From contig OZ249436.1 in NCBI GenBank assembly GCA_965235115.1, positions 9,116,001 through 9,180,000 of the forward strand: a DNA stretch of 64,000 bases, written 5' to 3'. Under the pieces are notes generated by a model. It was not told where the DNA came from. It ran no database searches and worked only from the letters and a program-made list of their open reading frames with translations. This document shows, piece by piece, positions 23,201-26,200 of this stretch. How positions within the stretch are numbered: position 1 is the stretch's first letter; every line of letters starts with the position of its first letter. Origin of the DNA: Laetmonice hystrix. Taxonomy: Eukaryota. Both the position numbers and the translations under genes were made by a program.

Positions 23201-26200
23201 GGTCCAAATCAGCATTATTTTGGAGGAGCAGAAAACAAGTTTGCAAACACTGCAGACGTAGGCCCACATGCCACTTAAAAATACCAAGCCAATAATTTCA
23301 GTGTTGAAAAAAACTAAGGAAAATGTAAACTTATCCGACATTCAAGGATGGAGATCCCCCTCCCCCCCCCCCCATTTTTTAATGGGGGAATGGTAAATGA
23401 TCCCTCATTCCTGAGAAAAAAAGTTTTTCCCCCATCTGTGTTATCTCAACAAATGTTCTACAAAGCTGTAAACTGTCGTCAATATCTGGTGCCCTTATAG
23501 ACTATTGATGATTGTCACTGCCACATAAAATAAACTTAGGTTTTACATTAAGCTAGGACCAAACCACAAATGCTGAGACCTTACAAAAGTAGGCATAATA
23601 AACGTTTAACAGAGGTAAGCAACGCTTGAAGAATCAGATCATGCTCACAGCTCTGCTAAATATATTATATGGATAAAATAATCATATTTTTAAAAACACT
23701 GTGACGTTGTCATGTGAAGCTGATGATTAAGACGACCTAGTTGTCATCATCAGCTGCAAACTGCCTGGAGCCATGCAAGTCGTCATTCATTACCTGTACA
23801 GAGGGGCCTTGTGGGGTTACCCCCTTCACACGGCAGCAACAACACACCTGGCTAACTGGAGGGACCAAATCTGGCTGCAGAATAAGGCAATGGAAATCAT
23901 ACACGACAGCCACTGACTAGGTATGGCTGATATAAGATCAAATCACTTCTTCTGTATGTTGGTTCCTGGATCAGTAGGGACTACCTACCTGCTCGCGTCA
24001 GCATCTGATGTTGGAACAGGCGACGGCGCCAGATCAACCAGACTCAAGCTTCGCCCGATCTTACCGAGGGGGCGCCACTTTCGTAGCCTTTTAGCCATTC
24101 TATGAGTATATGTCATCTACAGTTAGTGTATGTCACCTAACTGCCTCCAAAATATTGCTCAGAAATCAGAACCAGTGGAATGACATGTTGAAATGAACAA
24201 CCAACCATCATGCTTACAATGGCTTACTTTTTAAACCAAATGGTTGAAGCCCACTAAACTCAGTGTTGAACCAGAGGTTTTCAACAATATCTTTGTTTCA
24301 AAGTCTAAAAATTATTACCAAGAGAATGTAGAACCACTAAAACATTGAAAGCCATCACACAAGATTAAATAAGAAATTATCAGACTGGTAGTTTATAATG
24401 CAGCTTAAGAAGATATTTATGAGTGTGGTCACATATTACCGGCATTAGTGTTCAAACTTAGAATTGGGCAACTACACGACAAACACTTGAAAATCACTTG
24501 AATTCAATTTGCTTGTTTCCTGCAGCATAATTGAGGTATAGAGCTAACTTATAAAGACTTAAAGGGGATTAATTCTAAAATTTAATATACTATGTCGGTG
24601 GCAACACAAGAGTTACATTTAAATAAATTTTGGAAATTATGGCAGTATCAGCCGAGTCTGTGGCTGGGACCATATTTTACACATCTGGCTGTCACAGAAT
24701 TTATCATAATTTACTTTTCTAAGTATAGATTTACATCTTACTTTATGTTGATCATCAAATATTTAGATACCCATGGGTGTTTTCAAGATTTCTTATACTA
24801 GTGAGTACATTGCCTGTACATCATGCTGAAATTAATTACAATCAGTGGAAATTTAAGTGCACAGAAATGCTATTTACATACAGCCGATGGAATTTATGCC
24901 CGATAATGCTTACAAGCAGTGCCATTCCACTTACGAGATCCCATATCCGAAAAATGTTAGTGAGGCTGAGAAGTGGGACAAAGCTCCATAGAATACTTTT
25001 GCTCTGAGAAACACTAAGTGTGTGCTCATGTGGCTGGACCAGTACATGAAAAAGGTAATGCCAGGTTTCTTAAAGATAGATGGCATTCTCCAACATATCC
25101 TCCCTTGTCAACAACAATAGGAACATAACATCTTTAAAATATACTGCTAGTATTTCACATTTAAGTTGGGGCTAATCATCCGAGGAAATCAACATCCTTC
25201 CAAAAGCCAAGGTTGTATGTCATAGCCCTGGATTCATAAATAGATTTATCTAAATTATTGCAGCGTTTTAGATTGCAAGTTTCGAGTCAACCACTGGGAA
25301 TGTGTGAGTCTGTTTTGTTGAGCTGGTATGTTGGTGAGTATTAGTGTGGAATTATTTGCCTGGCCATCATAACAGCCCCAGGGGTAATATAGCAGACTTA
25401 CCTTCATACTCTGGCAGAAAATGAGTATTGAGTAATATATTGTCCACTTACCTGAAGCTGCTAAAGGCATCACAGTATACTTACTACCGGTATATATGAA
25501 AAATGTCTTACACTACCATGCCACATGACTGAAAACTATTGATACTGGCTGATAACTATTTGATATACAAAACTTATTCCCTTTCAGTTTCTATTTCTAT
25601 TCTCAGGTCTTCACACTACATGTGCAAAAGTAGACCTTACAGGCTTACATATAAAGATACATATCATACTCTTAAAACTTCCAAAACACATACACATGAT
25701 AATCTATGCATGACTTAATGGTGAAGCGTGCCAGATGAAATGTGCTGATCTATAACTGGTCTGTGCGACATGTTCAGCATATCAACACCGTCTAACCCAG
25801 TGATACTTGCCTGCTTGCCTCGGCAGCTATGGTGGGTACCACGCCCTGAACGTCACCAGTGTGGTTATTGGTAGTGTAACGCCGCATGTTTCGACCATTA
25901 GGGGAGTTGATGCCCATTTTGTCCAAGCCTGACTCCACGCTCTGTTATTGGATTAAAACAGAAATAAAATAATGCTTCTTATCCAACACCTGGAGGATAA
26001 GCAACCTTCTGATTGGGCATGTATAGTACGGGTAATGTCTTATTGAAAACGTCTCAGTTGACACCTGGCCCTTTTGCTTTTGTCCTCCTTTGAAGGTTGA
26101 CCACTTCCAAGTAGCTCATATAGGTTTCTGTATAGAATGGGGAAATGTTCATTACCAGTCACTAGTTACCGCATACAGGTATTTAATTGATACTCACCTC

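Follow-up and report, generated by a model that had tools for sequence, protein, structure and literature searches.

A candidate pair of 9-nt microexons, one frame-preserving and one with a stop codon, in intron 5 of WDR13 in Laetmonice hystrix

Neural microexons, steric exclusion between neighboring exons, and poison microexons are all known, and they are the ingredients of the locus described here. As described in the cited accounts, eMIC microexons are 3–27 nt long, divisible by 3, and carry UGC between the branch point and the AG (10.1101/2024.09.17.613571, 10.1101/2021.02.24.432780); UGC is reported from about three quarters of SRRM3/4 microexons and is not strictly required (10.1101/2024.09.17.613571), and eMIC targets are described as poorly conserved between lineages (10.1101/2021.02.24.432780). 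The two candidates studied here, ME1 and ME2, are alike in length and UGC and, as in mammalian eMIC microexons, each has a strong donor of its own. They differ in that ME1 lacks CUAAY and its AG-exclusion zone is short, and in that ME2 holds a stop, and they lie behind a weak GC donor, whereas fly eMIC exons are described as having strong upstream donors (10.1101/2021.02.24.432780).

Steric exclusion of exons has been placed at a donor-to-branch-point distance below about 50 nt (PMC7969005, PMC5740500), and 57 human clusters of sterically exclusive exons are reported (PMC5740500). OGDH exons 4a/4b and the Tpm1 exons flanking intron 2 show this spacing (PMC7969005), as do ME1 and ME2; however, in the OGDH and Tpm1 cases, as described there, the exons code for protein, the intron is longer and its branch point distant, and normally one of the two exons is retained, whereas ME1 and ME2 are both 9 nt long, the whole intron between them would be 41 nt, one reads as a stop, and double skipping would give the canonical protein. 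ME2, as a predicted poison exon, may be likened to the neural poison microexon 5 of Bak1, which when included exposes its host mRNA to NMD; the latter is single and PTBP1-controlled, and the portions of that source drawn on here describe no adjoining coding partner (PMC13542418), while ME2 has ME1 beside it. Likewise, the consecutive RPS24 microexons of 3, 18, and 22 nt are several per intron and variably combined, but they lie at the gene's 3′ end, are combinable, and are not described as sterically exclusive in the passages drawn on here (PMC11162997). Drosophila ratchet points with cryptic RS-exons, as described, pair YAG|GTAAGT with a second donor about 50 nt on and a poisonous inclusion form (PMC8605326), which is also the arrangement here; unlike them, the intron concerned is only 2.6 kb, there are competing upstream AGs, and an acceptor precedes the second donor.

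Our literature search, which lay outside subscription papers, splicing databases, and supplements (so that microexon tables could list WDR13), returned no publication on a WDR13 microexon, and no combination of a coding and a poison microexon within 59 nt was found in the literature searched. The phrase "mutually exclusive microexons" was absent among the literature matches listed, as was "microexon" among the annelid and octopus matches listed.

The window, i.e., the whole stretch analyzed, comprises 64,000 nt of Laetmonice hystrix DNA (contig OZ249436.1, positions 9,116,001 to 9,180,000), and its features are collected in Table 1. Tentatively, we favor the reading that intron 5 of WDR13 holds two genuine cassette microexons that cannot be combined, the one modifying the protein and the other acting as a poison exon, as well as an older exon X, all behind a weak GC donor; we regard this as quite possible, though short of probable.

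Table 1. Features of the WDR13 locus (positions within the window)
Feature	Position	Strand	Basis and remarks
WDR13 coding span, 13 exons, 478 aa	20238..32108	-	in-silico exon joining (one open frame) and WDR13-named homologs
Exon 5	25811..25941	-	phase-2 end within conserved P-T-x-x-A-E-A-S-R motif; non-canonical GC donor AG|GCAAGT
ME1, candidate 9-nt frame-preserving microexon	25452..25460	-	read from sequence; 3′ end CAG|GTAAGT is also a recursive-site motif
Spacer, 41 nt	25411..25451	-	donor, candidate branch points CTCAA and CTCAT, pyrimidine tract
ME2, candidate 9-nt microexon with in-frame TGA	25402..25410	-	inferred from sequence
Exon X, 111-nt phase 2-2 cassette exon	23989..24099	-	TAG|...CAG|GTAGGT, CTAAC branch point at -24; counterparts elsewhere
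Exon 6, WD40 propeller region begins	23108..23190	-	exon joining, Ridgeia structure model

The host gene and its exon 5/6 junction

The gene had been named WDR13 in an earlier note on this DNA, and the name stands: its top match in the protein homolog search was Ridgeia WDR13 (74% identical), followed by a chiton protein (70%), Lamellibrachia, an unnamed protein, and a cephalopod-type protein, which placed the window protein nearest to annelid WDR13. The WDR13 tree left the window protein without supported placement (the Paralvinella row being long and partial), so that its annelid affinity is drawn from the top match and from the shared exon X described below; the 47 sequences of solved structures that were matched included no WDR13 and were nearly all WDR5, and exon 5 alone as a protein query gave seven candidates, none of them a match. 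In mouse, Wdr13 expression is reported as high in brain, among other tissues (PMC3371019).

The 12 introns of the gene total 10,434 nt, the shortest being 90 nt, and intron 5 is a phase-2 intron of 2,620 nt. Orthologous introns were drawn from a metagenome scan for exon 6, which gave 51 loci, from which L036 (no acceptor at the expected place) and L039 (no intron there) were dropped; 28 of the remaining 49 were complete and 23 of these distinct, and since L002 spans only the part below exon X, 22 complete introns were left. The exon 5 donor at 25810 was GC in the window and GT at the same place in all 28 complete relative loci; among the loci seen, the GC donor is thus peculiar to the window species. 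In L039, a fish-type genomic locus, the intron itself is absent at the junction, and a counterpart of the intron 5 module is therefore impossible there.

The junction was then followed across homologous proteins. From 299 homolog rows retrieved, we excluded 39 lacking the anchor motif and P0127, which starts inside the junction, and scored 259 (a redundant set, with isoforms and close species); four newer cluster members, P0304–P0306 among them, lie outside this set. Spacing across the exon 5/6 junction was identical in 252 of the 259 rows and the other seven had insertions, none of which was a +3-residue insertion; a second set of cluster look-ups yielded no further junction insertion. Within the motif, P, A, A, S, and G were invariant in a 62-row alignment. 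Such uniform spacing makes the form that skips all optional exons the canonical one and indicates that motif length is strongly constrained. In the Ridgeia WDR13 model, the junction lies in a short low-confidence helix (residues 126–132, pLDDT <50), and the first propeller strand begins at 143.

This bears on the proposal, made previously, of an on/off switch between functional WDR13 and a form lost to NMD, which we do not retain in that shape. Because the skip form is canonical, ME1 would be a modifier and not the "on" state; ME1 would lengthen a length-invariant motif, which argues against a binary switch; and intron 5 contains a third cassette exon, exon X.

Among the seven rows with insertions, four Octopus rows carry 13 aa each, and the cephalopod-type Logan protein P0128 has an 18-aa junction insertion that includes an extra S-S-S-R. 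The latter resembles the S-S-F-R that ME1 would create, though a 12-nt piece explains the P0128 insert equally well. The Paralvinella and Lamellibrachia gene models have insertions of 41 and 61 aa, each ending in a second copy of the motif. The motif in front of the propeller is a likely functional site of a little-studied protein, and it appears to have been altered lineage by lineage, i.e., duplicated by exon X, interrupted in cephalopods, and possibly lengthened in the window species.

Splice signals of the pair and the chance expectation

The coordinates and sequences of both candidates, the 41-nt spacer, the donors, the phase, and the S-S-F-R and R-V-stop readings had been given earlier, and all proved exact. 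Both candidates are 9 nt long (microexon length range 3–27 nt), with YAG in front and an AG|GTAAGT donor behind. The ME1 acceptor is a NAGNAG, which allows an alternative 6-nt form (25457–25452). The ME1 acceptor is weak, with an AG-exclusion zone of 17 nt (constitutive acceptors of the gene have 18–57 nt), 11/20 pyrimidines, and no CUNAY; that of ME2 is the better of the two, with an AG-free zone of 34 nt (limited by the spacer), 15/20 pyrimidines, and CTCAT only.

UGC was claimed earlier as a mark of eMIC regulation, and it is indeed present, at -9 (ME1) and -6 (ME2, where it abuts the acceptor core). As a signature, however, it is weak: UGC lies within 30 nt of 3/12 constitutive acceptors of the window gene and 9/35 orthologous exon 6 acceptors. 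The acceptor architecture typical of eMIC exons (long AG-exclusion zone, long pyrimidine tract, strong CUAAY) was found at neither candidate. Given how common UGC is elsewhere, the lack of eMIC acceptor traits in ME1, and the weak upstream donor, we do not class the pair as eMIC exons, though they may work like them.

There are six AG|GTAAGT sites on both strands of the window, and those of ME1 and ME2 are the only two, and the top-scoring donors, in all 10,434 nt of WDR13 intron (scored with an approximate consensus weight matrix, not MaxEntScan). Under an order-2 model, 0.05 such sites are expected per 2,620-nt intron, and the expectation for a pair less than 100 nt apart is about 1e-4. Of 438 intronic AG positions, 6.2% had an acceptor-like YAG (8 or more pyrimidines out of 12) upstream at an in-frame distance of 3–27 nt, and 0.5% had one exactly 9 nt upstream. 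That the two strongest donors each have a YAG exactly 9 nt upstream speaks for the microexon pair, and the earlier view that both look like real microexon signals is supported. The pair was chosen post hoc out of a very large scan, and the figures therefore exaggerate its strength.

One alternative is that one microexon or none is used to any extent, the pair being a chance juxtaposition or a decaying local duplication with low-level splicing noise. We consider this unlikely, yet still worth weight, because no pair was seen in relatives, no homologous protein has a +3 insertion, the pair was picked from so large a scan, and short words recur between the flanks at an offset of 50 nt. Against it stand the expectation of about 1e-4 per intron for the donors alone, with two in-frame acceptors not yet counted, and the comparison of the flanks. 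At the 50-nt offset, 24 of 53 positions are identical between the ME1 and ME2 units, splice cores included, but flank similarity by itself is not significant (p 0.12–0.18), so that both donors are consensus though their surroundings differ. A tandem duplication as the origin of the pair thus finds no significant support in these figures. Chance alone is not the likeliest account of the pair.

Conservation, which had been put forward as a check, did not favor the pair: no ME1/ME2-like pair was present in the 22 distinct complete orthologous introns, among which there is no close relative. In particular, the stretch from exon 5 to exon X holds nothing similar in either L018/L025 or L034 (L002 ends 152 nt above exon X), and the best in-frame 3–27-nt candidate in 17,335 nt of distinct orthologous introns scored 9.5 (L047, in a repeated segment) vs 12.8 in the window. 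Turnover of eMIC targets between lineages makes absence of the pair from distant relatives expected, and the claim is thus lowered, not refuted. Overall, against the microexon pair count the lack of a pair in relatives, the lack of a +3 homolog, and the weak ME1 acceptor; optional exons at the same junction elsewhere (Octopus isoforms, P0128, exon X) would favor it.

The site itself is spanned by contigs that read through the introns; they come from three runs on a single sample, from which the assembly itself may derive, and one contig matches 24421–27041 without difference. A second allele (X2 record 13, 24783–27041) has eight substitutions, all listed ones outside 25402–25460, and ten gap letters, not all of which could be placed; since a 60-nt stretch would be expected to hold about 0.2 substitutions, this allele is uninformative on constraint at ME1/ME2. 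The local RNA fold of 25350–25520 was unremarkable (z -0.9).

Predicted products and competing uses of the two donors

We infer the splicing of ME1 and ME2, their exclusion, NMD, and any tissue control from the sequence. In the favored reading of a microexon pair, intron 5 would act as a multi-state splicing module behind the weak GC donor, with skipping of all optional exons as the default (478 aa). ME1 would add three codons (S-S-F-R at the junction), or two in its 6-nt form, and would thereby lengthen the conserved motif just before the WD40 propeller and tune the protein. ME2 would act as a poison exon and direct the mRNA to NMD: its product (R-V-stop) stops after codon 138 of 478, with exons 6–13 and at least seven exon junctions downstream, so that the in-frame stop comes long before the last exon junction. 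According to the table of predicted products, the sole coding outcomes are the skip form, ME1 (9 or 6 nt), X, and ME1+X. All other uses of these donors would stop at 137–142 aa: a 50-nt exon at 137 aa, a 59-nt merged exon at 140 aa (the 41-nt spacer, if kept after ME1, reads as a stop), ME1 joined to ME2 at 141 aa, and an extension of exon 5 at 142 aa.

The idea that the short spacer makes the two mutually exclusive is borne out as far as distances can show. The ME1 donor is separated from the candidate branch adenosines of ME2 by about 23 and 30 nt, less than the threshold of about 50 nt for sterically exclusive exons, and the whole spacer is shorter than the shortest intron of the gene; joining of ME1 to ME2 is therefore unlikely. 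U1 on the ME1 donor and U2 on the ME2 branch point, at most 30 nt apart, would exclude each other, so that one transcript would take ME1, ME2, or neither. Some annelids have very short introns, with a median reported as 57 bp in Capitella (10.1101/2020.05.07.078311), so a 41-nt intron is not strictly impossible and a margin of doubt attaches to the exclusion. If spliced as proposed, the locus would show steric exclusion in an unusually compact form, with a three-residue change and a poison choice lying within 59 nt, and it would offer a simple minigene for U1/U2 competition around microexons and for eMIC control in spiralians.

The same donors admit other uses. Recursive splicing would make the ME1 end a ratchet point, with the second donor closing a 50-nt cryptic RS-exon for exon definition, or else a single acceptor (25460) would serve a 9-nt coding and a 59-nt poison form, the ME2 acceptor being incidental in both cases. 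CAG|GTAAGT at 25452 is indeed followed by a second donor 50 nt downstream, which matches Drosophila RS-exons, described as about 50 nt long and in most cases poisonous when included (PMC8605326); early stops occur here in both the 50-nt and the 59-nt form, and a weak GC upstream donor could profit from a regenerated strong donor. On the other hand, ratchet points are described as occurring mainly in long introns (PMC8605326) and intron 5 has only 2,620 nt, the putative recursive AG has two other AGs 6 and 9 nt upstream of it, and the better ME2 acceptor, with its pyrimidines, AG-free zone, and CTCAT, would be left unneeded. We judge recursive use, or one exon with two donors, unlikely, yet a serious competitor of the microexon pair. 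Use of the two as distal alternative donors of exon 5, extending it by 359 or 409 nt into a poisoned mRNA, would agree with a GC donor seen only in the window species among the loci and with the stop in the extension; as it leaves two acceptors at exactly 9 nt unexplained (0.5% each), we hold it to be highly improbable.

Exon X and further observations in the window

Exon X is better supported by sequence comparison than the microexons, and appears older and more widely shared. Like the GC donor of exon 5 and the 6-nt form of ME1, it was absent from the earlier note. Its reading starts with R-M-A and ends with P-T-S-D-A-D-A-S-R, a copy of the exon 5 motif, so that inclusion gives two tandem motif copies; exon X would thus duplicate the same junction motif that ME1 would lengthen. 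Counterparts were found at three distinct metagenome loci (L018/L025, 84 nt; L034, 84 nt; L002, 96 nt), all divisible by 3 and all with TAG|A[AG]TGGCT, and in two annelid gene models, P0185 and P0008; the other 20 complete orthologous introns had no second motif. The AG-free zone of the acceptor is 81 nt in L018 and 58 nt in L002, and UGC lies upstream in L018, L034, and L002. These three also share the word TGGTGTGTGGTG 15–30 nt above the exon X acceptor, a candidate splicing element (oriented loci L018:~3040–3160, L034:~5520–5635, and L002:~115–250) that is absent from the window.

Exon X also allows a different role for the two donors, namely that the exons they terminate, non-coding or with uORFs, belong to a shorter transcript that starts at an internal promoter and is spliced to exon X, whose ATG would start a WD40-only WDR13. 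In the window, L018, and L034, exon X has its ATG at +2 in strong context; a Met also occurs in the Paralvinella and Lamellibrachia inserts, 26–39 residues before the end of the repeated motif, and ME2 holds an out-of-frame ATG. However, L002 has GTG at the ATG position, all four exon X copies are immediately preceded by TAG and are multiples of 3 in length, which fits an internal exon, and the Met can be read as belonging to the duplicated S-R-(A)-M-A motif. Nor was a CpG-rich internal promoter seen in the intron 5 region: there is no CpG-rich stretch between 23101 and 26400 (o/e 0.21–0.57 vs 0.89–1.26 at the gene start). We regard such a transcript as improbable.

Returning to the microexon pair, its most far-reaching form would be a minimal switch in which the 41-nt spacer keeps the 9-nt coding and stop microexons exclusive under neural eMIC control, coupled to exon X. 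If ME2 is joined to exon X, the in-frame exon X ATG, in strong context, comes one codon after the ME2 stop, and the choice of ME2 could split WDR13 in two, a helical N-terminal part of 138 aa and a WD40 propeller made by re-initiation and with its own motif copy, rather than lead only to decay. This is speculative, and we give it little credence.

Two further candidates linked to exon X were rejected. Four long proteins among 50% representatives matched exon X in 8–22 stretches each and were not accepted as homologs, and a 15/16-bp duplex flanking exon X (24144–24159 with 23211–23226) was reached by 32/150 shuffles and is absent in three relatives.

Elsewhere in the gene, intron 3 (3.3 kb) contains two open phase 2-2 candidates of 57 and 39 nt on the minus strand (29030–28974 and 27679–27641), both with strong pyrimidine tracts, an R-S-L-D start, and weak to moderate donors, as well as an acceptor-donor juxtaposition, TTACAG|GTGAGA, at 28176 (minus strand). 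At the intron 3 junction, some sea-star isoforms carry an insert of six residues that starts R-S-L (P0055, P0258, and P0259 vs P0260 and P0261). In intron 7, each of the three runs has a contig that skips a stretch of 565 nt (22066–22630), on which many other contigs pile up; this stretch is probably a polymorphic repeat insertion. Outside the gene, near-identical inverted sequences ending in AAAG|GTAAGT lie about 285 nt apart at ~8240 (minus strand) and ~8525 (plus strand) and are probably the ends of a repeat element. A long ORF at 11824–13463 (plus strand) presumably represents the C-terminal part of a lemur/AATK-type kinase, and another at 47599–50181 (minus strand) resembles what we take to be a ZNF598-like terminal exon. 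Finally, a tandem array with a unit of about 50 nt lies downstream of WDR13, at ~17150–18040.
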